A stretch of 38,818 nucleotides of DNA from a virus (Duplodnaviria; Heunggongvirae; Uroviricota; Caudoviricetes), in IMG/VR virus record IMGVR_UViG_2651869695_000012. The stretch is one strand, 5' to 3'. Within the stretch, counting starts at the first letter, position 1. The number at the start of each line of letters is the position of its first letter. This document shows positions 608 to 38,818 of the stretch, piece after piece. The position numbers and the translations under genes were made by a program. The notes below the pieces were generated by a model. That model searched no databases. It saw only the letters and a list, made by a program, of their open reading frames with translations, and was not told where the DNA came from.

Positions 608-3600
608 TCAACGAATACTGATGCCGGAAGCCGCTTTTTTGGTCACAATCACCGTACAGTCGGTGATATTACCTGCCCACTGATTGCCTTTATGGAAAAC
701 CTTAAACTCCAGAGTGACGCTACCACCACCACTAGGCATATCAATAACCGCACTGTAACTACCGGGAATGGCCCCTTTAGTTTCTCTGGATGCGATTAAT
801 ACACCGTTTTTGCGAACTTCAAAACCATAACCCGTGTAACTTGTACCTCCCGGGTTATTACCACTTCCCGGATAGCTATACGCTATTCCGTTAAAGATAA
901 TGGGCGGAATAATGATTTGACGGTCAAAGTTATGATCATCGCTGATGGTGACTGTAACCGTCCCGTTTGGTGTTTCCGTGTTACCCCACGTACCAGCCTG
1001 TTTCGGAAATGATTTGGATACAGCTTTAACGAAGTCACCTCTGACCTGAGTCGCCTCCAGCATGCCCTTAATCGTACAGTTTTCATTTACCGTGACATTG
1101 TTGAGCGTCCCGGCGTTCGCATTCACACTGCCACTGATATCCGCATTTTTAGCGGTCAGCTTTCCGTCTGATGTCAGGGAAAATGCCGGTGGATTGCCAC
1201 CACTGGTAATGGTGGGGGCCGTCAGGCGTTTCAGGAACACGTCATTCATGAATATCTGATTGCCCTGCGCCACAAACATCGGCGTTTCATTCCCGTTTGC
1301 CGGGTCAATAAACGCGATACGGTTAGCGGCAACCAGAAACTGGCTCAGTTTGCCTTCCTCCGAGTCCTCCATGCTGAGGCCAATACCCGCGACATAATGT
1401 TTGCCGTCTTTGGTCTGCTCAATTTTGACAGCCCACATGGCATTCCACTTATCGTTGGCGTCCTTCCACTCTTTCGAAAACTCCTCCAGTTTGCTGGCGT
1501 TATCCTCCGTCAGCTCGACTTTTTCCAGCAGTTCCTTGCCGAGATGGGATTCGGTTATCTGGCCTTTGAAAAAATCCAGGTAACCTTCCGCATCATCGCT
1601 CGCCCGACCGACAGCCTCCACAAATGCCGATTTGCCAACGGTGTTCACACTGCGGATATAAAAGTAATAATCATGGCCCGGTTTGATATTGATACTGGCG
1701 GCTATCCAGTACAGCGCCGTACCAAGATAACGCGCGCTGGTTTCAACCTGCCTGATATCGGCAATCCGCTTTTCCGAGAACCAGAACTCAAACTGTACCG
1801 TCGGGTCATAAACAGCAAGATGCGGCGTCGCAGTTATCTGAAAATAGCCCGGCGTCAGCTCAATCAGTGACGGCGCTGCCGGTGCGGCAATCCGGAACGA
1901 TACCGATGCCGGATCGCCCTGCTGCCCCCACGCATTTACCGCCCGGACTGTCAGCGTGTAACGCCCCAGAGCCAGTTGCGTGAAGCGGTATGTGGTTTCC
2001 GTCGTCCGGGCCGTGCTGACCAGCCGCTCACTGCCGTCGTCCGCTGCCACGGTCAGGCGAAGCAGGAAGCTCACGCCCTTCACCACCTTCGGCGTGTCCC
2101 ATCGCGCCAGCACCTGATATTCCCCGCTGTCTGCGGTGACTTCGGCAGTCAGGTGCTGCACCGCTGGCGGCGTGACACCATTCACCGTGCCGCTCTGGTC
2201 GCCGTCAAAGTGCGCCCCGTTATCCACGATGGCCTCTTTTTCCGGCACATGCTGCACGGCGGTGATGGCATACGTGCCGTCGTCGTTCTCACGGATACTC
2301 ACGCAGCGGAACAGGCGCTGGCGCAACGTCGGCAGCTTCAGCCCCCATACGCTGTATTCAGCAACGCCGTCAGGAACACGGCTCACTTTCACCTGCACGC
2401 CGTCGGTGACGGACTGAACCTCCACGCTGACCGGATTGCCACTTCCGTCAACCAGGCTTATCAGCGTGGTACCGGAGGATGGCAGCGTGATTTCACGGTC
2501 GAGCGTCAGCGTCCGGGTCTGGCTGTTCACCGCCAGCACGCGCCCGCCGGTGCTGATACCGGCATAGTCATCATCACAGATTTCAATGACATCGCCCGGC
2601 ACATGGCGAAGCCCTTCTGCACCCACGCTGAAGTCCACGGTCTGCGTTTCCAGCAGTTCTGTTTTAATCAGCCACAGCCCGGCGCGGTGTGCCTGCCCCC
2701 GGCTGGTACAGCCAAAGGCATCCATCTTCGTGACGTTACGACCGTAACGGGCAATGGCCTGCGTGTCCTCCACAAGCTCTGTCGCCGTCTCCCAGCCGTT
2801 GTCCGGGTCAATCCAGTTCACCTCAACGGCATTATGGCGGTCCTTCAGGGCGCTAAAGCTGTAGCGGAACGGCGCGCCATCATCCGGCATCACCACATTA
2901 CTGCGGTTATAGGTCCACACCTTATCCGATGGTCGGTCCTGCACGAACGTCAGCGTCTGCCCGTTCCATACCGGCATACAGCGCATCGCCGAGCAGAAAT
3001 CACTGAGCACATCCCACGCCTTGCGCTGTGTGGTCAGGTACGCATTACAGGTGATGCGCGGCTCCGTGCCGCCAAAGCCGTCCGGCACCGACTGGTCGCA
3101 GTACTGGCCGATGACATACAGCGCCCATTTATCCACATCCGCCGCACCAAGACGTTTCCCCATGCCGTAGCGCGGATGGGTCAGCATATCCCACAGACAC
3201 CAGGCCATGTTGTTGCTGTATGCCGGTTTTAACGTTCCGTCCCAGATACCGCTGTATTGCCGCGTCTGCGGGTTATAGTTCGACGGCACCTGCAGAATGC
3301 GCCCGCGAAGATGATAATTACGGCTCACCTGCTGGCTGCCGAACTGCTCCGAGTCCACCTGCACGCCAACCAGTGCCGTGTTCGGGTAGCACTGTTTCAC
3401 ATCGATGATTTCGGTGTATGACGACCAGAGCGTTTTGTTCTGCAGCTGGTCTGTGGTGCTGTCCGGCGTCATCCTGCGCATCCGGATATTGAACGGGCGC
3501 GGCGGCAGGTTATCCACCACCACCGAGGCCAGATACTGCGACGTGGTTTTGCCCTTAATGGTGATGTCTTTTTCCGTCACCCAGCCACCGTTACGTTGTA

Positions 3601-4021
3601 TCTGAACCAGCAGGCGGACTTCCGACGGATTCCGGTCACCCTTTGAGGTGGTTTCCACCAGTGCCTGCACGCCGAAAGTAAAACGCAGACGGTCAATGTT
3701 TGCCGACGTGATGGTCCGGGTGATCGGCGTGTCATATTTCACTTCCGTACCCAGCACCGTCTCGGAGCCGGAGGATTCAAAGCCCTCAGGCGGTGTCTGC
3801 TCCTGCTCACCTGCCCGGAACACCACCGTGACGCCGGAGATATTGGTATTCCCCTCACTGTCCAGCACCGGCGTACTGTTCAGCAGCACGCTTTTTAATC
3901 CATCCACCGGACCTTCAACCGGCCCTTCGCTGATGGCATCGATCACACTCAGCAGCTGCGTGGACTTCAGGTTGTCCTTCGCTTCGCGCGGGGTATGCCC
4001 CTTACTGCTACCTTTACCCAT
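608..4021 (-). CDS. J: Tail tip / host specificity protein J (central tail fibre)
   Basis: 1137-aa ORF; N-terminus [37 protein letters not shown] matches lambda J almost exactly from memory; GAGGA RBS upstream; position after I. Confidence 0.95.
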
Positions 4022-4087
4022 TCCTCACACTCCATAAACAACAAAGCCGCCCAAAAGGCGGCTCATGAGTTACGGCAGGATTAACTA

Positions 4088-4426
4088 TTATTTACATGCA
4101 TTAACACTATCAGCAAAAATTTTTGGCGTTAATGCTGGTACGCGTTCATAAAGAGTAAAACTACTGCCATTTCCTGCTTTTTTGATATCAAGCACAACAT
4201 CATACCCACCCATAGCCTGTGGAACTAAAAGGCTTACCCCATTCTCAATAGGAAGGGATGTTATAGGTGTTCCATTACCAGCCCATTGTCTGGATATGCA
4301 GCCTGACAATTCATCAATATTTTTTAATGAATTACCTTCCATTACAGGCTTGCCGGATTTTACGTAATCCAAAGATTTACATCCTGTTAAGGCAATAATC
4401 GTGCAGAATAAAATCGTTTTGTTCAT
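4088..4426 (-). CDS. Small lipoprotein moron between I and J; candidate superinfection-exclusion or envelope protein
   Basis: ATG at 4426 gives MNKTILFCTIIALTGC with a lipobox (LTGC); the longer ORF to 4438 starts with TTG; locus is visibly AT-rich compared with flanking tail genes. Confidence 0.55.
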   Translation of the reverse strand: MNKTILFCTIIALTGCKSLDYVKSGKPVMEGNSLKNIDELSGCISRQWAGNGTPITSLPIENGVSLLVPQAMGGYDVVLDIKKAGNGSSFTLYERVPALTPKIFADSVNACK

Positions 4427-4498
4427 ATAGCTAACCAACAGAATAATTATCAGTGTTCGATATAAATATTAAATCAGTTAGAACATGAGTAAATAATA

Positions 4499-5140
4499 TT
4501 ACCGCCCAATTACCACAACCTGACCACCATCCCCTTCATCTGCCGTGCTGATCTCCTGAGATGCCACACGTGACCCCACGCGCATTTCACCGTACAGAAC
4601 AGGCAGGACATTGCCCTGGGCAACCATGTTATCCAATGAGGAAAAATAGGTATTTTGCTTACCGTTATCAGTGGCTGACACTTTAGGCGTTTTGGCTTTC
4701 GGTGCCAGCATCTGCGCAACACCGCCTAAAACCATACCTGCCCCAAGAGAGAACATGAGATTACTTGCAACAATACTAAGCCCCGGCATCCAGATTGCCG
4801 TAGCAATTAGCGCCGCACCCAGCACTGCCTGAAAAATACCGCCACTTTTGGCACCCGCCAGACGCGGTACGATGTGGATCACGGCACCATTTGCCAGCGG
4901 CTCATTAAGACGGGCAGATAATTCGTTTTCGCCTGCATCACGCCCGGAAATGCGCACCTGATACCAGCCCTCATTCAGTTTCTGGCGAAACGCCGGAAGC
5001 TGCGTGGCCAGCGCCCGGATGGCTTCAGCCCCCGTTTTCACACGAAGGTCGATGCGGCGACCAAATCGTTGTAAATCCCCGTAAAGGCAGATGCGTGCCA
5101 TGCCCGGTGACGCCAGAGGGAGTGTGTGCGTCGCTGCCAT
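4499..5140 (-). CDS. I: Tail assembly protein I
   Basis: 213 aa; MAATHTLPLASPGMARICLYGDLQRFGRRIDLRVKTGAEAIRALATQLPAFRQK matches lambda I from memory; 5' end overlaps K as in lambda. Confidence 0.9.
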   Translation of the reverse strand: MAATHTLPLASPGMARICLYGDLQRFGRRIDLRVKTGAEAIRALATQLPAFRQKLNEGWYQVRISGRDAGENELSARLNEPLANGAVIHIVPRLAGAKSGGIFQAVLGAALIATAIWMPGLSIVASNLMFSLGAGMVLGGVAQMLAPKAKTPKVSATDNGKQNTYFSSLDNMVAQGNVLPVLYGEMRVGSRVASQEISTADEGDGGQVVVIGR

Positions 5141-5781
5141 TTGTCGGTATACCTCTCTCGTTTGCTCAGTTGTTCAGGAATATGGTGCAGCAGCTCGCCG
5201 TCACCACAGTAAATGGCGGCATGATTCGGCACCGATGAACCAAAACAGCACAGCAGCACATCGCCCGGCTGCGCCGCTGACAACGGCACCTGATACAGCC
5301 CTGTGGCCTCCAGATTATCCAGATAGAGATTCTGACCGTTACGCCACCAGTCATCCTCGCGATGAAAATCCGGCATCTCAATCCCCGCCAGATGGTAAGC
5401 ATCCCGGAACAGCGTGTAACAGTCCGTCACCCCGTGCTCAAAGCGCCGCCCGGTAAGATGTGGCACACAGCGGAACTTGTAAATCGCCCCCCGGCAGACC
5501 AGCCACCACGGCAAATCACTCTGCACCTGCAGCCGCCGATCGGCCTCACTCAGCCAGGGCAGACCACCGGGGTGATTGTGGACCAGCGCCACAATCTCAC
5601 CCTGCATTTCTGCCTGCAGCCAGTCCTCCGGCGACATCCGGAAATACTCCTCCGGCTCACCGGAGATATTCACGCAGGGAAAATATCTTTCCCCCTCCGG
5701 CGTTCTCACCACGAAGCCGCACGACTCCGCTGGCGCACATCGCCGGGCGTGCGCCAGAATCGCTGATTCTGTCTCTGTCAT
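5038..5781 (-). CDS. K: Tail assembly protein K
   Basis: Start taken at the ATG at 5781 (MTETESAILAHARRCAPAESCGFVV...), matching lambda K from memory; the ORF track extends further upstream into L. Confidence 0.9.
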   Translation of the reverse strand: MTETESAILAHARRCAPAESCGFVVRTPEGERYFPCVNISGEPEEYFRMSPEDWLQAEMQGEIVALVHNHPGGLPWLSEADRRLQVQSDLPWWLVCRGAIYKFRCVPHLTGRRFEHGVTDCYTLFRDAYHLAGIEMPDFHREDDWWRNGQNLYLDNLEATGLYQVPLSAAQPGDVLLCCFGSSVPNHAAIYCGDGELLHHIPEQLSKRERYTDKWQRRTHSLWRHRAWHASAFTGIYNDLVAASTFV

Positions 5782-5785
5782 GGGA

Positions 5786-6484
5786 TTACTGCGAAAGTTT
5801 GTTAATGGAAAGGAAGCCGCCAAAGTTGCCGACATTATTGCGAAACTTACAGCCACTCAGGCATTTACTGCATTTATCTTTCGTGATATCGGACGTCGGC
5901 TGGTCATATTCATCCGCGACAGCCGGACCGCTATAACCGCACTCATCACCGCGATAGGTCCAGGTACAGGTGTTGGCCAGCATGATGCGCCCCGGAAAAA
6001 CAGCGCCATCCGTTTCCGTCGGCGTGGACAGTACAAAAGAGGCGCTCACCGCGCTCAGTTCGCTGCACTGCTCGATGCGCCAGCGGCTGATCACCTCCTG
6101 CTCCGGATCGGCATCGCTATTTCCGTTGACGAAGTTCACCGCATCCAGAAAACGGGCGTAAACCTTACGCCTGACCACCGTTCCTCCGACCAGACTCTGC
6201 AGGTCTTCCACCATCCCGGTGACCATGCCGTGCAGATTAGAGACTTTCAGCGTTGGCCTTGCACTGGCTCCTTTGCCGTTCATCTCAAATCCACTTCCCT
6301 GAATGGGATAGGCCTGATACTGCCGCCCCTGCCAGGTGACTGGTTCACCTTTTTCGTTCTGCTCATTACAGAAGAAATAACGATCTCCGCCGACCTCTGT
6401 CAGATCGATTTCCCAGAGCACCACGCTGGCAGACTGCTCCGCACGGGTGCATTCATTCAGTGTTTCCTGTCGGATATTCTGCAT
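5786..6484 (-). CDS. L: Minor tail protein L
   Basis: 232 aa, same length as lambda L; C-terminal Cys-rich segment; position between M and K. Confidence 0.9.
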   Translation of the reverse strand: MQNIRQETLNECTRAEQSASVVLWEIDLTEVGGDRYFFCNEQNEKGEPVTWQGRQYQAYPIQGSGFEMNGKGASARPTLKVSNLHGMVTGMVEDLQSLVGGTVVRRKVYARFLDAVNFVNGNSDADPEQEVISRWRIEQCSELSAVSASFVLSTPTETDGAVFPGRIMLANTCTWTYRGDECGYSGPAVADEYDQPTSDITKDKCSKCLSGCKFRNNVGNFGGFLSINKLSQ

Positions 6485-13060: not shown

Positions 13061-15019
13061 TTACGCCGTACATTTCACCAGACCGCGGTGATCAACTGGC
13101 GCGACACCGGCGTCAATACGCACTTTCGTTGTCACGCCATCCACACTGAAGCCCTCCATCTGATCAATATATGGCGTATCCACACCGTTGAGATAAGCCA
13201 CTTCAATCGTATCGGAGCCTTTTGACGCAGCCAGGTAGAAGGTGGTCTGGCTGTTATCATCAAGACGAGGCTCTGCAATAACGGTCGCAAAATCTTTCAC
13301 CGGGTTAATAATACCGGCGTTAATGTCAGCCCCCTTGACACTTGAGGAGCGAATGACCTGGTTAGCAACAGACTCCATCGCCGTCGGTACCAGTACGAAC
13401 GCAGGACGAATATTCAGATGACGCTCCCCCTCTTTCTGAACGCGCATCAACTGGCGGGCTTTATCCAGCGATGCCACGTCCATTGCAGCGCTCTCCAGTA
13501 CGTTTGCATGTTTCGCTTTATCGAACAGACTTACATTATCTGTGGAGATTTTCGGGTTAGACGTCAGAATGGCATAAACCAGATCGGCAATAGTGGATTT
13601 CGCCGCACGGCCCAGTTTCATCGGGACATCGGTCAGCATATTCAGATCATCATTGATAATGGCCTGACGGGTGATACTGAACAGCTCGCCATAGGTCGCC
13701 AGTGCAATAGTGGCCTGTTTATCTCCGGTGGTGACGTATTTATATTCCGCCCCTTCACGCACCTGACGCAGAGCACTGAAGCCCCCCATACCCACACGAT
13801 GGGCAATTTTAAAATCAGACAACTGACCTTTCCGCGTCCACTGTTCATAGGTTTCAGGGGCATCTTCCCAGCCCTGCAGAATGGCTTTGTTCGCAACATC
13901 CAGCAGAATATTACCGAAGTCAGACGTACTGTGTGTGAACGCCGCACCGACCATCTGCATCGGGTTATAACTGGAAACCCCAATACCCCGTTCAGTCAGT
14001 GACATACGGGCATATTCACGCAGGGTCATCCCGTTGTAGACATTATCACGTTCGGTTTTTTCAAATCCGGCACGCGCCATCAGCGCCTGGCGGATCCCGT
14101 CCCCCACAAAATTACCGTTACCGGCATAAATATGAGCCGGGGTATTTTTATTGGATGGCGTGGACTCGCGCCCCATCTCGTTCAACAGCTTTTCGCGGGC
14201 CTGCTCCAGCGAACATTCAGGATCGGCAAGACACTGAGCCTGCAGCGTCTGATAACGCCCGCCAAACATGGCAAACAGATCATTAATACCGTTTACACGC
14301 GCTTTTTGCTCTGCCAGTACCTGCGCACGGATGCTGTTTTCATCCACCACGGGTGCTGCTGCCTGCACTGGCGTCCGGGAGGCTTCAGGTTCATTATCCT
14401 GTACGCGTGGAGCACTGTTGCGTGGCGGAGTAATCATGTTTCGAATGGATTCCGGCATCTTTTTAAATTCCTCTGTACGTTTTGACTGAATACATGCCAT
14501 TGCCTTAACGGCTGGCGTTACCTGATCAGCAAATCCATGTGCCAGACATTCGGCACCGGACATCCAGGTCTCATCCGCCAGCATGGCAGCAATTTCATCG
14601 GTGGTTTTCCCGGTTTTCTGTGCATAAGCGGGTAACAGAACCGCCTCAACTTTATCGAGCAGGTCGGCATAGGTGCGCATGTCCTCCGCATCACCGCCCG
14701 TAAAGCCAAATGGTTTATGAATCATCATGAAGGTGTTTTCCGGCATAATGACCGGGTTTCCTACCATCGCAATGACCGACGCCATTGACGCCGCCACACC
14801 GTCGACATAAACGGTAATGGACGCACCATGTGTTTTCAGCGCATTAAAAATGGCGATGCCTTCAAAGACATCGCCACCCGGTGAATTAATATGGAGATTA
14901 ATGTGGGTGATATCGCCCAGTGCATTCAGATCACTGATAAACTGCTTCGCTGTAACACCCCAGAAACCAATCTCGTCATAAATATAAATATCCGCGTCAC
15001 TCTGGTGACCAGCCTGCAT
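13061..15019 (-). CDS. Prohead protease (ClpP/S14-like) - scaffold - major capsid protein (HK97 fold) fusion
   Basis: Start at ATG 15019 (MQAGHQSDADIYIYDEIGF), just after the portal stop; N-terminal ClpP-like signature (HINSPGGDVFEGIAIFNALK...ASMASVIAMVG); Ala/Gln-rich linker; capsid-like C-terminal half. The ORF track extends to 15280 in a frame overlapping the portal gene. Confidence 0.8.
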   Translation of the reverse strand: MQAGHQSDADIYIYDEIGFWGVTAKQFISDLNALGDITHINLHINSPGGDVFEGIAIFNALKTHGASITVYVDGVAASMASVIAMVGNPVIMPENTFMMIHKPFGFTGGDAEDMRTYADLLDKVEAVLLPAYAQKTGKTTDEIAAMLADETWMSGAECLAHGFADQVTPAVKAMACIQSKRTEEFKKMPESIRNMITPPRNSAPRVQDNEPEASRTPVQAAAPVVDENSIRAQVLAEQKARVNGINDLFAMFGGRYQTLQAQCLADPECSLEQAREKLLNEMGRESTPSNKNTPAHIYAGNGNFVGDGIRQALMARAGFEKTERDNVYNGMTLREYARMSLTERGIGVSSYNPMQMVGAAFTHSTSDFGNILLDVANKAILQGWEDAPETYEQWTRKGQLSDFKIAHRVGMGGFSALRQVREGAEYKYVTTGDKQATIALATYGELFSITRQAIINDDLNMLTDVPMKLGRAAKSTIADLVYAILTSNPKISTDNVSLFDKAKHANVLESAAMDVASLDKARQLMRVQKEGERHLNIRPAFVLVPTAMESVANQVIRSSSVKGADINAGIINPVKDFATVIAEPRLDDNSQTTFYLAASKGSDTIEVAYLNGVDTPYIDQMEGFSVDGVTTKVRIDAGVAPVDHRGLVKCTA

Positions 15020-15032
15020 CCTGAACCAGGAA

Positions 15033-16541
15033 TTAATCTTCGGACTGGTCGTCGGTGTGCTGCGGCTCCTGTCGTTTCGTTGCGGCACTACTGCCTCCTT
15101 TATCACTGGCCGGATCGGTATCAAATACCAGATCCAGCTTGCGGTTTTCATCAATTTCGGCCTTGCGCCGACGTTTGACATCATCCGGATTACGACCACC
15201 AGCACGTACCCAGTCTGATTCTGTCGCCGCTCCACCACGAATCTGGATTTTCCAGGCCTCAGCCTCCTTAACAGGGTCAATCCACGGCATCACTGGTCCG
15301 GAATACACCGCGGTATACAGTGAAGAACGGTCAAGATCGCGGGGTAGCCTGATAACACCGGATGCCACAGCCTGTTTCAGCCAGGCACGATACATCGGGC
15401 GGGTGACGGCACCAATAAACCAGTCCTGCAGGATCAGGTAGCCATCAGTAGATTCAACCAGCTCCTGACGCTGGGCGCTGTAAGTGCCGTTATAGTTGCG
15501 CGCTGTACTGGAAAAACTCAGACGACTGCCCGCCGCCACGGCACGCAACTGACCATTACGAAAAGTTTCAAGGTTAGGATTGGGACGATCCGACTTCACC
15601 ATTCCGATTTCTTCGCCGGGTTTCAGATCGTCGTAAATAATGCCTGGCTGAATGGTAAGCTCGCGTTCATTCTCCTTGCTGCCATTACCATCCGGTTCAT
15701 AGCTCTGCCCGTCGCCTTTCCGGATGTACATCCCCAGAGCAGCGGCGATCCTTGCTGCAGTCAGCTCAGAATCTTCATACTCTTTCAGGGCACTGAGGCG
15801 GATCAGCACACCGGACAACAAAGACGTCCCGCGCATCTGGTGCAGACGGCGAACAAATTTAAGATGCAGCATTCGCTCTGCATCCACTTCTTTGGTTTCC
15901 ATCTGCCGCCCGGATACGGGACGACTTTTATACACCAGATATTTTTCGGGACGCCCCCAGTCATCAACAAACACGCCCTGATTCAGCCTGTTGCTCTCAT
16001 CACTGGTCATGGGAATAAAGTCCGGCTCGAGCGCCTCCAGCCAGAAATGAACACCGGCAGAAGGCGTCAGGCTGTTTATGCGCCCGGAAACCATCTGGGC
16101 AAACACCTCACCATCGCGCAGCCAGGTACGCAGCATCAGACGTTCCAGCATCGGACGGGTAAACTGCCCGGTGACTTCCGGACTGACAGACCATTCACTC
16201 CATCGGGTGCGTATCTCTGCTGCCAGATCACGGGCAATGGCCCCATTGCGTAATACCGGATGTGGCTCGACAATAATCCCGTTTTTCCCCACCACCCGTT
16301 CTTCCAGCTTGTCAAATACACCAATGACCAGATCGTGGTTGTTATCAAGGTAACGGGCCTGCTCACGTAACGACACGGCCCCGTACTGGCTTAACTGGTC
16401 GGCAGTTCGGTTTTCCCGCCGGGCTTTATGTGTCCGCGTCGTTTTTACGGCCTCATAAGCCTGGATCACCGCACGGGAACGCAGCCTTGCCGCTTTCCAT
16501 CCTGGTGAAAAAACGCCAATCACATCATCAAGAATTGCCAT
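15033..16541 (-). CDS. Portal protein (lambda B family)
   Basis: Start at ATG 16541 (MAILDDVIGVFSPGWKAARLR), overlapping the stop of the upstream small gene (ATGA); ~500 aa at the lambda B position between terminase and capsid. Confidence 0.85.
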   Translation of the reverse strand: MAILDDVIGVFSPGWKAARLRSRAVIQAYEAVKTTRTHKARRENRTADQLSQYGAVSLREQARYLDNNHDLVIGVFDKLEERVVGKNGIIVEPHPVLRNGAIARDLAAEIRTRWSEWSVSPEVTGQFTRPMLERLMLRTWLRDGEVFAQMVSGRINSLTPSAGVHFWLEALEPDFIPMTSDESNRLNQGVFVDDWGRPEKYLVYKSRPVSGRQMETKEVDAERMLHLKFVRRLHQMRGTSLLSGVLIRLSALKEYEDSELTAARIAAALGMYIRKGDGQSYEPDGNGSKENERELTIQPGIIYDDLKPGEEIGMVKSDRPNPNLETFRNGQLRAVAAGSRLSFSSTARNYNGTYSAQRQELVESTDGYLILQDWFIGAVTRPMYRAWLKQAVASGVIRLPRDLDRSSLYTAVYSGPVMPWIDPVKEAEAWKIQIRGGAATESDWVRAGGRNPDDVKRRRKAEIDENRKLDLVFDTDPASDKGGSSAATKRQEPQHTDDQSED

Positions 16542-21426: not shown

Positions 21427-22479
21427 TTATTTCCCCACCAGCTCGTTTATCTCTTTCACTGTCTGGTTAAACCGCTCTGACTCAAGCTCAACACCTAAGG
21501 CCCGACGCCCCAGCGCCATTGCTGCTTTTATTGTGGAACCGGATCCCATAAAAAAATCAGCAACCAGATCACCAGGTCGACTACTGGCATTGATTATTTG
21601 CCGGAGCATATCCGCAGGTTTCTCACACGGATGTTTACCCGGGTAGAACTGAACGGGTTTATGCATCCAGACATCGGTATAAGGCACGGAGACTGATACG
21701 GAGAAATAGCGCCGGAGAGATTTAAACTCATCCAGCAATTCAGAATATTTGCGATTCAGTGAATCATAAGATGCCACCAGCTGGTGGTGTGGTTGTTCCA
21801 GTTGTTGTTCCTGAAACTTCTCTGCCGCTATACGGGAAAACAGTGCCTGTAACTTCCGATAGTCAGCCTCATTCGGCAACTGCCACTGACTGGCACCAAA
21901 CCAGTGGGAAACCATATTTTTCTTACCTGTGGCTTCGGCAATTTGTTTTGCCGTTATACCCAGTTCGGCACGAGCATCCCTGAAATACGAAATCAGCGGT
22001 GCCATTATGTGCTGTTTGAGTTCCCTTTCTTTTGCCGCATAGCCGTCACTTTTGCCGCGATATGGCCCCTGGTAATGTTCAGCAAACAGAACGCGCTCTG
22101 TGGCTGGAAAATATGCACGCAGACTTTCTTTATTACACCCATTCCAACGTCCGGACGGCTTCGCCCAGATGATATGGTTAAGCACGTTGAAACGTTCACG
22201 CATCATGATCTCAATATCAGATGCCAGGCGATGCCCACAGAACAGGTAAAGGCTTCCGGCAGGTTTTAACACCCGCCAGAACTGGGCCAGACAGTGGTCC
22301 AGCCACTTAAGGTAATCTTCGTCCCCTTTCCACTGATTGTCCCAGCCGTTGGGTTTCACCTTGAAGTACGGCGGATCGGTAACAATCAGGTCAATGGAAT
22401 CATCAGGCAGGGACTGAATAAAATGCAGGCAATCAGCGTTGATTAAATCAACACTGTTTATTTTTACAGTATTTTTCAT
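21427..22479 (-). CDS. Orphan DNA methyltransferase (beta-class N6-adenine or N4-cytosine)
   Basis: 350 aa; motif IV LIVTDPPYF near the N-terminus and motif I FxGxG (DFFMGSGSTIKAA) near the C-terminus; no adjacent restriction endonuclease ORF. Confidence 0.85.
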   Translation of the reverse strand: MKNTVKINSVDLINADCLHFIQSLPDDSIDLIVTDPPYFKVKPNGWDNQWKGDEDYLKWLDHCLAQFWRVLKPAGSLYLFCGHRLASDIEIMMRERFNVLNHIIWAKPSGRWNGCNKESLRAYFPATERVLFAEHYQGPYRGKSDGYAAKERELKQHIMAPLISYFRDARAELGITAKQIAEATGKKNMVSHWFGASQWQLPNEADYRKLQALFSRIAAEKFQEQQLEQPHHQLVASYDSLNRKYSELLDEFKSLRRYFSVSVSVPYTDVWMHKPVQFYPGKHPCEKPADMLRQIINASSRPGDLVADFFMGSGSTIKAAMALGRRALGVELESERFNQTVKEINELVGK

Positions 22480-35831: not shown

Positions 35832-37427
35832 ATGGCTGAAGCAGCAAAAAAAAACCCACAAAAGCTGAATGAAAAAAAAGGCTCAACATCGGCATCATCA
35901 CTTGATATTGTGAATTCACGACAATCAAAGGATATTTATCTTGGATTGTGTGGATATGTTGGATGTGGCATGAGAACGATAAACAAAATTATCGAAGAGA
36001 TATCCAAAGAATGGGGGTATAATGTTGTACACATCCGCATAAGTGCGCTTATGGAAAACCCATTATATTTTGAGCCAGCAGCACTGAAGGTATCCGAAAG
36101 CACACAAGTTAATAGACATTTAAAACTCCAGGATATTGCCAATAAACTTCGTAAACATTACAAAAAAAATGAGTTGCTTGCAGAAGCTGCTATTGCAGCA
36201 ATCGCAGCAGAGAAAAATAATATTGTTTATAATAATGATGAATATAAAGGTACTGTCTTCATCATTGATCAATTCAAAAGGCCGGAAGAAATAGAGTTAT
36301 TCAGAGTTATATATCAGCATAATTTCTATTTGTTAGGAGTTTTGCGCGATTTAGATTACCGAATTCAGAATCTCATTGATGACGAATCGACAAAGAACGA
36401 TCTTCATTTAATTATCAATATTGATAATAAATCCTCTGATCCGTATGGACAAAGAACCGGGGAAACCATTCTTGATTCAGATTTTTTTATTAAAAATAAC
36501 TTCAGCCAAAAAAGTGAATTAAAGAAGAAGATTGATCGGTTTTTCGGTCTTATTCATGGCAAAAATGGTTTAACACCAACTTTTAACGAGAAAGGTATGT
36601 ATGCTGCCTTTTCAACATCATTACAATCAGCTTGTTTATCACGTCAAGTAGGGGCTGCACTGTTTGATGATGAAGGGAATTTGCTTGCCGTGGGTAAGAA
36701 CGACGTACCTAAAGCTGGTGGCGGGTTGTATAGCAGTGATGATTTTGATAACGATCATCGATGCGTTCACAAAAGTGGTAAGTGTTATAATGATGCAAAC
36801 AAGCTAAAAATTAAAGACCGTATAAAAAGCATATTATCAACCGAAGTAAGAACTGTATTAGGTATTTCCGCAGGACAAACTGTTGCCGATATTAATATAA
36901 CACGACTTCTAAACAAATTAGATAATATTGCAGAAGGCATTTACAAAGACAGCAAAATATCAAGTGTAATGGAATACTCCAGATCAATTCATGCTGAAAT
37001 GGACGTCATTACATCAATGGCTAGAAAACAAAACGGCGATACTAAAGATAAAATTCTTTTTACGACAACCTATCCCTGCCACAACTGTGCAAGGCATATT
37101 GTCGCAGCTGGAATAAAAAAAGTAGTATATATAGAGCCATTTGATAAAAGCCTTGCTCTTGATCTGCATAATGATGCAATAACAAAGAACGAAGAATCTT
37201 CCAAAGTAATATTTTGTGATTTTGAGGGGGTATCACCCCGCCGCTACCATAAATTTTTCAGACCAACGGATGAACGTAAAGATGATAAAACAGGGGCTGC
37301 AAATAAATTTAATGCTCGCTACGAAAATCATATAGATGTTCAATATCTTGATGATTATAGAAAGTATGAGACTGTTGTAGCTAAGAAATTTATAAACGAG
37401 ATTGCTAAACCAGAGTCTCAGCCATAA
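35832..37427 (+). CDS. Two-domain P-loop-like NTPase + zinc dCMP/cytidine deaminase protein; candidate AvcD/DCD-type nucleotide-depletion anti-phage protein
   Basis: 531 aa; N-terminal Gly-rich loop LGLCGYVGCGMRT; C-terminal deaminase signature: CLSRQVGAALF, zinc ligands HAE (SIHAEMDV) and PCxxC (TYPCHNCARH); AT-rich; terminator hairpin directly downstream. Confidence 0.75.
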   Translation: MAEAAKKNPQKLNEKKGSTSASSLDIVNSRQSKDIYLGLCGYVGCGMRTINKIIEEISKEWGYNVVHIRISALMENPLYFEPAALKVSESTQVNRHLKLQDIANKLRKHYKKNELLAEAAIAAIAAEKNNIVYNNDEYKGTVFIIDQFKRPEEIELFRVIYQHNFYLLGVLRDLDYRIQNLIDDESTKNDLHLIINIDNKSSDPYGQRTGETILDSDFFIKNNFSQKSELKKKIDRFFGLIHGKNGLTPTFNEKGMYAAFSTSLQSACLSRQVGAALFDDEGNLLAVGKNDVPKAGGGLYSSDDFDNDHRCVHKSGKCYNDANKLKIKDRIKSILSTEVRTVLGISAGQTVADINITRLLNKLDNIAEGIYKDSKISSVMEYSRSIHAEMDVITSMARKQNGDTKDKILFTTTYPCHNCARHIVAAGIKKVVYIEPFDKSLALDLHNDAITKNEESSKVIFCDFEGVSPRRYHKFFRPTDERKDDKTGAANKFNARYENHIDVQYLDDYRKYETVVAKKFINEIAKPESQP

Positions 37428-37579: not shown

Positions 37580-38818
37580 TTATTCAATAGGCTGTCTGTT
37601 GGAACCTAAATTAGTGTAAGTAAGAATCGAATCAACCCTATCCCACCATGCCTGATAGGCTTTACGCTGTTCTTCTAGATAATCGCTCTTATCATAAACT
37701 TGCCATACCCCTGGCAGTTTATGACCGAGCATTATTTCAGCAATATGAGGCGCAGTAAGATCAGAAAAGTTTGTTCGTGCTGTTCGTCTCAAATCATGAA
37801 GAGACCAATGAGGAAATTGATACCCCAAACGCCGCCATGCGTACTGCATTAAATTGTAAGGCAGCGACTGCAATGATGTTCGACCAACTGGCTCCTTGCT
37901 TCCTTCCTTGGTAAAAAGCATATCGGAACCGTTGTTCATAGAGATAACGTATTTTATAAGCTCTTCAACCGGTTCAATAATGGGGCGCTTTAGCGGTTCG
38001 CCTGTTATATCACCTGTCTTATGTCGTTCTGGCGGTACAGTCCATACCTTATTAATGAAATCAAAATCATCCACCCTGGCAGTAATCAGCTCTGAACTAC
38101 GACAGCCGAAATGCAGCAATAGTTTAATGAAGGCCCGGTATTTGGGAACCATTCGAGAACCATCGATCGCAGCATAAAGAATTTTAATTTCATCGTGTGT
38201 CAGAAACCGTTTCTTCTGACCTTTACGGATATCCATATCTTTCCCCGTGATGTCCGACAGCGGGCGAGTTTCAATAAACTTTCTCTTATACGCCCAGACA
38301 TGGGCCTGCTTTGCGTTAATTAGCAATCGGTCTGCTATTGCTGGAGTCTTAGTGCTAAGAGGCTCCAGGACCTCTAACCAATCATGCAATGTAGCTGCAT
38401 CGTGAGGGATACTCCCGATTTTAGAGAACAGATGCAGTTCAAATGAGCGGAGTATCTGCTCAGAACCTTTTTTATTTTTTACACAATATGCTTCATACCA
38501 GGCACGGATCACAGACTCTACCGTCATGGCTTCAGTAGCTTTGCGTTTTTCTGCCTGCCTGACCAATCGTGGATTGCGGTTTGACTCAAGTTCACCACGA
38601 AGACGGATAACTTCTTCTCTGGCCTCTTTTAATCCAGTTGCCGGGTAAGTTCCGATATCAAGTCGCTCGCCTTTCCCTGCCCATTGATAACGATATTGGA
38701 ACACTACGCGACCTTTCGGTGATACTCTGACAGACAGACCATCACGATCTGATTTAACCAAAACCTTATCGCGTTCCTTTCCAACGACTGAACGCAACCA
38801 CGCATCAGACAGCGCCAT
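37580..38818 (-). CDS. int: Tyrosine recombinase / integrase (P4-type with N-terminal arm-binding domain)
   Basis: 412 aa; start ATG at the last three bases of the window; C-terminal catalytic motifs HDLRRT and LGHK...Y; N-terminal MALSDAWLRSV typical of P4-like integrases. Confidence 0.9.
   Translation of the reverse strand: MALSDAWLRSVVGKERDKVLVKSDRDGLSVRVSPKGRVVFQYRYQWAGKGERLDIGTYPATGLKEAREEVIRLRGELESNRNPRLVRQAEKRKATEAMTVESVIRAWYEAYCVKNKKGSEQILRSFELHLFSKIGSIPHDAATLHDWLEVLEPLSTKTPAIADRLLINAKQAHVWAYKRKFIETRPLSDITGKDMDIRKGQKKRFLTHDEIKILYAAIDGSRMVPKYRAFIKLLLHFGCRSSELITARVDDFDFINKVWTVPPERHKTGDITGEPLKRPIIEPVEELIKYVISMNNGSDMLFTKEGSKEPVGRTSLQSLPYNLMQYAWRRLGYQFPHWSLHDLRRTARTNFSDLTAPHIAEIMLGHKLPGVWQVYDKSDYLEEQRKAYQAWWDRVDSILTYTNLGSNRQPIE

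Follow-up and report, generated by a model that had tools for sequence, protein, structure and literature searches.

Siphoviruses are known to encode exclusion factors beside their tail-tip genes, with Cor, Llp and the lipoproteins of the mEp phages as examples (PMC11990801; PMC11893012). The mEp lipoproteins, proteins of 72 amino acids (aa) encoded downstream of gene J, exclude phages that depend on OmpA or LamB (PMC11893012). In Serratia phage vB_SspS_OS31 a lipobox was noted in protein p54, and the protein was suggested to be an analogue of Cor (PMC7556043). The sequence record of Klebsiella phage phiKO2 describes protein Gp19 (YP_006599) as a 'putative moron gene product; similar to Xanthomonas gene XCC2962' and gives the gene a putative terminator of its own. 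Here we describe a gene of the phiKO2 Gp19 family in the IMG/VR virus record IMGVR_UViG_2651869695_000012. The whole stretch of DNA analysed, 38,818 nucleotides (nt) long and further called the window, carries a lambdoid prophage of E. coli with its late operon on the minus strand; the gene in question, encoding a predicted lipoprotein, lies in this operon between tail genes I and J. The protein is a member of a family already noticed by others, found here at a new junction.

The gene is an intact, selected, compositionally foreign and horizontally mobile accessory gene. Its open reading frame (ORF) starts with ATG, has the direction of the tail operon and encodes 112 aa; an alternative TTG start upstream, at 4438, would give 116 aa. 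RefSeq holds the same coding sequence (CDS) of 339 nt, labelled hypothetical protein (WP_001332187.1, WP_153274582.1). A preliminary description, made from the letters of the window alone, had reported a lipoprotein gene of ~112 aa with the lipobox LTGC; the ORF at 4426..4088 and the N-terminus of its product, MNKTILFCTIIALTGC, agree with this. The N-terminus has Lys3 in the n-region, a hydrophobic core and the lipobox L-T-G-C, with Cys16 as the residue to be lipidated and Lys-Ser at positions +2/+3. All elements of a lipoprotein signal, i.e. a lipobox of the form [LVI][ASTVI][GAS]C, a positively charged n-region and a hydrophobic core, are present in it. The gene product may thus be described as a prolipoprotein of the Sec/Lgt/Lsp type with predicted processing, and Lys-Ser at +2/+3, with no Asp at +2, predicts sorting by the Lol system to the outer membrane. 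Two ORFs on the plus strand (4182-4367 and 4267-4398) were considered and set aside as antisense by-products of the lipoprotein gene.

The protein matches the family phrog_914 ('unknown function') with an E-value of 7.3e-33, its residues 1-112 being aligned with positions 1-118 of the 118 positions of the profile. A word-indexed search found homologues at 48-62% identity in Jejubacter, Kluyvera, Klebsiella and Enterobacter, which together with the E. coli clade make a distinct sub-branch. An exhaustive profile search, covering 1.84 billion representatives, produced ~125 representative clusters at E<=1e-3, nearly all with proteins of 105-125 aa. In an alignment of 47 sequences C16 (the lipid-bearing residue), C43 and C111 are invariant, while P27, K35, W48 and G63 are nearly so. 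A strict lipobox is present in 43 of the 47 members; Asp at +2 is absent from all 44 members scored, and the mature protein has exactly three cysteines in 39 of 44. The better described members are more distant from the window protein: protein VUF53278 of Escherichia phage Fraca is 31.5% identical to it over residues 1-89 (tblastn, E 3e-5), and the Fraca protein itself is 48.6% identical to phiKO2 Gp19 and 44% to OS31 p54. The ratio of non-synonymous to synonymous substitution rates (dN/dS) between clades, which can be read only where dS is unsaturated, is 0.06-0.31, and the variable sites among the E. coli haplotypes comprise 11 synonymous and 6 non-synonymous ones. The gene is under purifying selection.

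No family for this lipoprotein was found in Pfam, NCBIfam or PADLOC (with zero PADLOC families at E<=1); the sole NCBIfam match, VirB7 at an E-value of 0.08, is confined to the signal peptide. Sequence searches of the PDB with two profiles gave no meaningful match. The AlphaFold2 model (predicted local distance difference test, pLDDT, 83.7; predicted template modelling score, pTM, 0.76) has an alpha+beta fold, in which a disordered signal and tether are followed by a beta-alpha-beta4-alpha domain. According to this model a tether of ~12 residues would hold a compact alpha+beta domain of ~85 residues near the lipid. C43 belongs to the first long helix, and C111 closes the last one. A disulfide between the two is probable; the domain would then be located outside the cytoplasm, in an oxidising periplasmic or surface environment. 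The structural analogues are Francisella Flpp3 (DUF3568), the closest one with 6-9% identity and a template modelling (TM) score of ~0.5, and the N-terminal domain of BamC, with identities of 6-10% overall. The Pfam profile of DUF3568 does not match the window lipoprotein, and the likeness to Flpp3 and BamC, one of a common fold, says nothing about function.

The gene differs from its surroundings in composition. In 200-nt windows GC content is 0.30-0.41 over positions 4001-4600 and 0.53-0.60 on both sides. The preliminary description had remarked on an AT-rich pocket at this place and called for a comparison with the flanking genes; the values are 0.37 for the lipoprotein gene and 0.57 for 3 kb of flanks. 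Its statement that lambda has no gene between I and J is borne out as well and extends to PhiR49_1 and N15; in all three phages the junction is just a spacer of ~50-60 nt with a hairpin. Relative to lambda and PhiR49_1, the inserted segment takes the place of part of the I-J spacer: it begins right after the stop codon of I (4501-4499) and ends right before the hairpin that is common with these two phages. Two marks of a moron are seen, a gene at a junction that is empty in close relatives and a composition unlike that of the surrounding genes.

The near-identical copies have the same position. At 59 near-identical IMG/VR loci (L002-L060) the gene is found directly upstream of J, with 98-100% identity except for three frameshifted copies, and the four IMG/VR loci printed in full have the order L, K, I, lipoprotein gene, J. 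More distant relatives sit elsewhere. The order K, lipoprotein gene, I, J is found at L062, L070, L071, L075, L090 and L092-L097 as well as in Fraca, phiKO2 and Klebsiella phage ST846-OXA48phi9.1. The geometry of this arrangement is almost fixed, with the end of K at ~4955, the lipoprotein gene from 5001 to ~5340 and the start of I at ~5395. In these lineages the copies of the lipoprotein are ~25-50% identical to each other, while the K and I proteins are, respectively, 46-92% and 47-68% identical to the reference proteins; faster divergence of the lipoprotein than of K and I is typical of proteins at the host-phage interface. At L063 and L066-68 the gene lies between the chaperone gene and the tape-measure gene, a junction that we take to be the position of gene 15 in HK97. 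Copies outside tail modules were observed in a prophage early region, on the opposite strand (L080), in an integrative island (L078) and in a small capsid-encoding, satellite-like element (L082). Several distant members were found only on contigs of 1-2 kb with little context. In most of the relatives in tail modules GC content is lower in the gene (0.37-0.45) than in the flanks (0.50-0.57). A hairpin with a T-run follows directly after the stop codon, then the ribosome-binding site (RBS) of the next tail gene; only the copies of ST846-OXA48phi9.1 and L061 lack such a hairpin. As an accessory gene the family moves among phages and other elements, and the junctions of lambda-type tail operons are one of its favoured places.

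A peculiar arrangement is present in Pseudomonas phage phiAH14a (L074, KU708004). A full-length member of the family, starting with MRIAALGLAVALLSGC, is encoded there at 4962-5309, where the record has it split or truncated as p34/p33. The gene is followed by a hairpin and then by the gene of a second I-like 'tail assembly protein', p32 (5367-5948), which matches PF06805 at 21.4 bits, slightly below the cut-off, and is ~46-52% identical to the I proteins of the enterobacterial modules with the gene between K and I. The pair, located in the early/immunity region and a long way from the tail genes, looks like a transplanted fragment of lipoprotein gene and I kept intact. An obligate cassette of lipoprotein and gpI was considered as a general rule and rejected, since there are copies before the tape-measure gene, or in non-tail contexts, that have no I-like neighbour. 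The paper on phiAH14a treats another lipoprotein, of 140 aa and encoded between K and I (PMC4936722), which resembles the PHROG 914 family in the signal peptide only. Other genes also occupy the I-J junction, namely an HNH endonuclease gene (45958-46524) in mEp021 (L085, MH706966) and a pair of small ORFs in phiAH14a. Both this junction and K-I appear to act as general hot spots for insertion into tail operons of the lambda type.

The insert, 433 nt in this comparison, is present in 337 of 5426 complete E. coli genomes (~6%) at 95-100% identity; O104:H4, O55:H7 CB9615, NU14 and an avian pathogenic E. coli (APEC) O1 strain are among the carriers, and all listed genome records call the product 'hypothetical protein'. 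By themselves the flanks have 8656 matches, spread over 4286 genomes, far more than the insert has, so that only a few per cent of lambda-type I-J junctions carry it. In nearly identical E. coli genomes the prophage is located between yjjG and prfC. The exact protein is encoded on at least 1000 contigs of a large collection under no other names than 'hypothetical', 'Lipoprotein' and 'Phage protein'. Among 50,697 deposited phage records there is no close copy; tblastn yielded nothing at 1e-5 and distant relatives only at E<=10.

With regard to expression, no terminator separates I from the lipoprotein gene and the two are co-directional; the gene must therefore be transcribed late in lytic growth. 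The best sigma-70-like site found with a position weight matrix in the spacer upstream of the gene is TTTACT (4493-4488) and TAATAT (4471-4466) on the minus strand, separated by 16 nt; an independent promoter in this AT-rich spacer is plausible. Several relatives carry a Shine-Dalgarno sequence GGAG or AAGGAG. Downstream of the gene there is a strong hairpin at 4064..4044, with a folding energy of -21.4 kcal/mol (z = -4.8), and TTTGTTGTTT comes next. The I-J hairpins of lambda and PhiR49_1 are homologous to this one, with a compensatory change from A-U to G-C at the base of the stem. An equivalent I-J hairpin with a different stem sequence is present in N15 and phiKO2, annotated in both as a putative rho-independent terminator; the coordinates are 2465-2490 in lambda (L084), 3808-3831 in N15 (L099) and 6007-6029 in phiKO2 (L098). 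In all these phages, as in the window, the hairpin with its T-run immediately precedes the RBS of J. The hairpin as a terminator brought in by the moron was considered for this locus and rejected, as lambda, PhiR49_1, N15 and phiKO2 have an I-J hairpin with no such gene at the junction. The comparison suggests that the late operon contains a conserved element of terminator-like or RNA-stability type. At the K-I and chaperone-tape-measure junctions most copies come with their own hairpin. Within a late operon under antitermination, a terminator makes sense only if there is transcription independent of Q. An Rfam search of positions 3800-4800 gave no credible RNA. The coordinates of the features are collected in Table 1.

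Table 1. Features at the I-J junction of the window (coordinates are window positions)
Feature	Position	Strand	Basis or remark
gpJ, tail tip / host-specificity protein, downstream neighbour	608-4021	-	six J-specific Pfam domains
Terminator-like hairpin GAGCCGCC-TTTT-GGGCGGCTT with T-rich tail, directly before the RBS of J	4044..4064	-	scan and fold
Segment inserted relative to lambda/PhiR49_1, ~432 nt	4067-4498	-	pairwise and multiple junction alignment
Prolipoprotein CDS	4088..4426	-	112 aa, mature ~97 aa; PHROG 914 / phiKO2 Gp19 family
Signal peptide with lipobox LTGC (residues 13-16), predicted lipidated Cys16, then Lys at +2	4379..4426	-	sequence reading
AT-rich spacer of 72 nt, stop codon of I to lipoprotein start	4427..4498	-	holds the best sigma-70-like site
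gpI, tail protein, upstream neighbour	4499-5140	-	PF06805 at 1.7e-23

A blocker of the Cor/Llp type would bind and inactivate the outer-membrane protein recognised by the phage's own gpJ. The gene stands directly upstream of J and its product is a predicted outer-membrane lipoprotein; the strategy is common beside receptor-binding genes (PMC11990801; PMC11893012; N15 cor), and OS31 p54 was proposed as a Cor analogue (PMC7556043). The proteins themselves give no sign of common descent. When aligned with the family profile by hhalign, N15 Cor (gp24) matches over residues 2-32 only, i.e. the signal peptide region, lambda Bor over residues 1-29 only, and the mEp021 lipoprotein, validated by experiment as an exclusion factor, in the signal peptide only; tblastn of the phage collection gave no match to N15, phi80 or T1, and neither the sequence search nor the predicted-fold search links the window lipoprotein to T5 Llp (PDB 8A60). 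As judged from these comparisons, the window lipoprotein is not homologous to Cor, Llp, Bor or the mEp021 lipoprotein. A receptor blocker should travel with its receptor-binding domain. An identical lipoprotein allele stands beside at least four clusters of the C-terminal 160 aa of J, either 41-45% identical to that of the window or unrelated to it. The C-terminal type of the window J is in turn present in 74 phage records (90-98% identity). PhiR49_1 and Stx1a/Stx2c phages are among these, and a close copy of the lipoprotein gene is missing from all 74; PhiR49_1 combines the window-type J with a plain lambda-like I-J junction. Over its last 200 aa the window J (608-1210, minus strand) has 97-98% identity to J of many Stx1a- and Stx2c-converting phages and of PhiR49_1 (from ECOR13), but over the last 160 aa only ~37% to lambda J; the receptor is probably the one used by those Stx phages and probably not LamB. 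Moreover, the tail module of Fraca has both a member of the family and a separate cor gene, and most relatives adjoin K and I or the tape-measure gene rather than J. In the absence of co-variation a strict block of the phage's own receptor is unlikely: the lipoprotein does not look tuned to the receptor-binding domain of its own J and would be an analogue, not a homologue, of Cor and Llp. Exclusion of other phages, or at a different step, would be compatible with these results. The preliminary description had taken the gene for a moron expressed from the prophage and a candidate exclusion factor, with Cor as an example, or envelope-modifying factor. The moron part is supported in so far as a foreign accessory lipoprotein gene, with a product predicted to reach the outer membrane, is located in the tail module and is absent from this junction in close relatives; members of the family were also independently called 'putative moron' (phiKO2 Gp19) and a possible analogue of Cor (OS31 p54). 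The finding of one allele with at least four J types and of one J type without the gene speaks against a Cor-like blocker of the own receptor, and expression from the prophage may occur if the spacer holds a weak promoter.

A conversion factor for host fitness or virulence like Bor or Iss, conferring e.g. serum or envelope-stress resistance, is about as improbable as a blocker of the own receptor. Lambda does carry the Bor lipoprotein and Lom as cargo of benefit to the host, the gene is present in the pathogenic lineages O104:H4, O55:H7, NU14 and APEC O1, the spread of the family over mobile elements of distant Proteobacteria would suit a generic envelope function, and the PDB entry title of the closest structural analogue, Flpp3, calls it a Francisella virulence determinant. 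But no homology to Bor was found, the match to Flpp3 is a weak one, and the copies in tail modules are co-oriented and tightly packed with late genes, some of them with a strong RBS; such packing favours expression in lytic growth, when the fitness of the host is irrelevant. Another reading is a helper of the phage's own lytic cycle rather than a moron. Such a protein might modulate the envelope for lysis or release, or keep new tails from being triggered too early, which would explain its stable place between K and I. Transcription of the gene along with the late operon is unavoidable, and its copies between K and I have short spacers, a strong RBS of the AAGGAG type and a conserved geometry though the lipoprotein itself has diverged. 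Nevertheless, we consider this role quite unlikely. Lambda, N15 and PhiR49_1 have no such gene, nor do the Stx-phage records of this J type have a close copy, so that tail assembly and lysis do not require it; a lipoprotein that is exported cannot join tail assembly in the cytoplasm; low GC content and variable positions indicate horizontal acquisition; and frameshifted alleles persist. Finally, a chance ORF or a pseudogene in an AT-rich spacer could be suspected from the weak Shine-Dalgarno sequence and from an annotation that never goes beyond 'hypothetical'. This reading is hardly credible: the match to phrog_914 at 7e-33, the 125 clusters with the Cys triad, dN/dS well below 1 and the confident AlphaFold2 fold speak against it, and it is refuted by conservation.

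The explanation that we favour, as a whole about evenly balanced between right and wrong, is an accessory tail-operon gene for an outer-membrane lipoprotein that acts on the envelope in exclusion or protection. The lipoprotein would be anchored in the outer membrane, with its domain close to the lipid, and would bind an envelope component at the periplasmic face. It must be transcribed with the tail genes during lytic growth and possibly also, in the lysogen, from a weak promoter in the spacer; the lysogen transcripts would then stop at the I-J hairpin before reaching J. By binding and altering the envelope component it would exclude superinfecting phages or prevent the loss of progeny on debris. 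The function proposed here, an envelope-acting protection of the lysogen or infected cell and of the progeny, is suggested by sequence features and is put forward tentatively, with rather less than even confidence; confinement of the family to phages and mobile elements, at varied junctions, was counted in its favour.

In a bolder reading the lipoprotein would not mask a receptor, and its target could be the conserved penetration machinery of lambda-like tails. Held by a short tether at the periplasmic face of the outer membrane, it would stop any incoming phage with such a tail from forming the channel, whatever the receptor of J. Cryo-electron microscopy and tomography have described a plug of gpI, which may insert into the outer membrane, and a periplasmic channel of gpH* (PMC12617516). 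A block at this step would explain why the gene is linked to K, I and the tape-measure gene and not to the C-terminus of J, why it is indifferent to the type of receptor-binding domain and diverges rapidly, and why the lipoprotein gene and the second I-like gene of phiAH14a stay together as an intact pair. As a specific proposal it is nonetheless a long shot.

Several observations weigh against the favoured explanation. The absence of co-variation with the C-terminus of J removes the simplest logic of exclusion. No defence model of PADLOC matches the protein. The hairpin that would end the lysogen transcripts is a conserved feature of the I-J junction, used by the insert and not part of the cargo. 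The promoter-like site is in the top ~4% of window segments of equal size, but out of 500 shuffles of these 110 nt, 110 (22%) scored as high, so that it does not stand out from an AT-rich background; a consensus promoter scan found no promoter on the minus strand at the lipoprotein locus, and the Shine-Dalgarno sequence of the window gene is weak. Frameshifted alleles exist in E. coli (L058, L059 and L060 in IMG/VR; proteins P0002 and P0018), recognised by tblastn matches split into two or three overlapping pieces and by aberrant predicted C-termini, which means that the gene is dispensable and occasionally decays. In the literature we found no paper naming the RefSeq identifiers or phrog_914 and no experiment on the family.

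Elsewhere in the prophage other accessory genes were observed. Beside the integrase gene (37580-38818, minus strand) there is a gene on the plus strand (35832-37427) for a 531-aa protein with a cytidine/dCMP deaminase Pfam domain (6.9e-15), which matches the PADLOC defence model 'dCTPase' at 1.1e-164. The otherwise near-identical prophage of E. coli strain E2 has a gene for an AIPR-family protein in the same slot beside int; with dCTPase in one prophage and AIPR in the other, the slot is a variable position for defence cargo. A DNA methylase gene (PF01555, 2.2e-42) is located at 21427-22479 on the minus strand, a slot which in the near-identical prophage of strain E2 lies between the antiterminator and lysis genes. 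The head module is not of lambda type: a gene at 13061-15280 (minus strand) encodes a fused ClpP-protease/major-capsid protein (PF00574 and PF25209). The prophage is thus a mosaic, with a non-lambda head and a lambda tail.

Among complete E. coli genomes ~6% carry the conserved, predicted envelope lipoprotein in a lambdoid prophage, with O104:H4, O55:H7, uropathogenic E. coli (UPEC) and APEC strains among the carriers, and relatives are present in prophages of Klebsiella, Enterobacter, Citrobacter, Serratia and Pseudomonas. If it does exclude phages, its family would be a new one among exclusion factors and of wide occurrence, which would matter for phage therapy and for the host range of phages, and its target might be a post-adsorption step common to lambda-like tails. 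If it does not, the gene is one more uncharacterised moron.

Comparison with known systems places the window gene closest to phiKO2 Gp19, Fraca VUF53278 and OS31 p54. Like these, it encodes a lipoprotein of ~112 aa with the same Cys triad, is co-directional with the genes of a lambda-like tail module and is followed by a hairpin; the three other genes lie between K and I, the window gene between I and J. Cor (phi80, N15 gp24 and T1) and Llp (T5), which inactivate FhuA, are likewise small outer-membrane lipoproteins encoded beside tail-tip or receptor-binding genes, and it is plausible by analogy that they have a common logic with the window lipoprotein, acting on the outer membrane from the periplasmic side. 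Mature Cor and Llp have ~60 aa, in contrast to 97 aa in the window protein, and the similarity is limited to the signal peptide. The mEp lipoproteins are unrelated to the window family. Lambda Bor and plasmid Iss, which confer serum resistance, resemble the window protein as small lipoprotein cargo of lambdoid prophages, but lambda bor is located by the lysis genes, on the opposite strand, whereas the window gene is in the tail operon. The HK97 moron gp15, reportedly characterised by Cumby et al. in 2012 as an exclusion protein of the inner membrane with its gene in the tail cluster, is not known to be a lipoprotein; it is a precedent for exclusion aimed at the entry of DNA and not at the receptor. 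Its gene is, like the window gene, an accessory gene embedded in a lambdoid tail operon.

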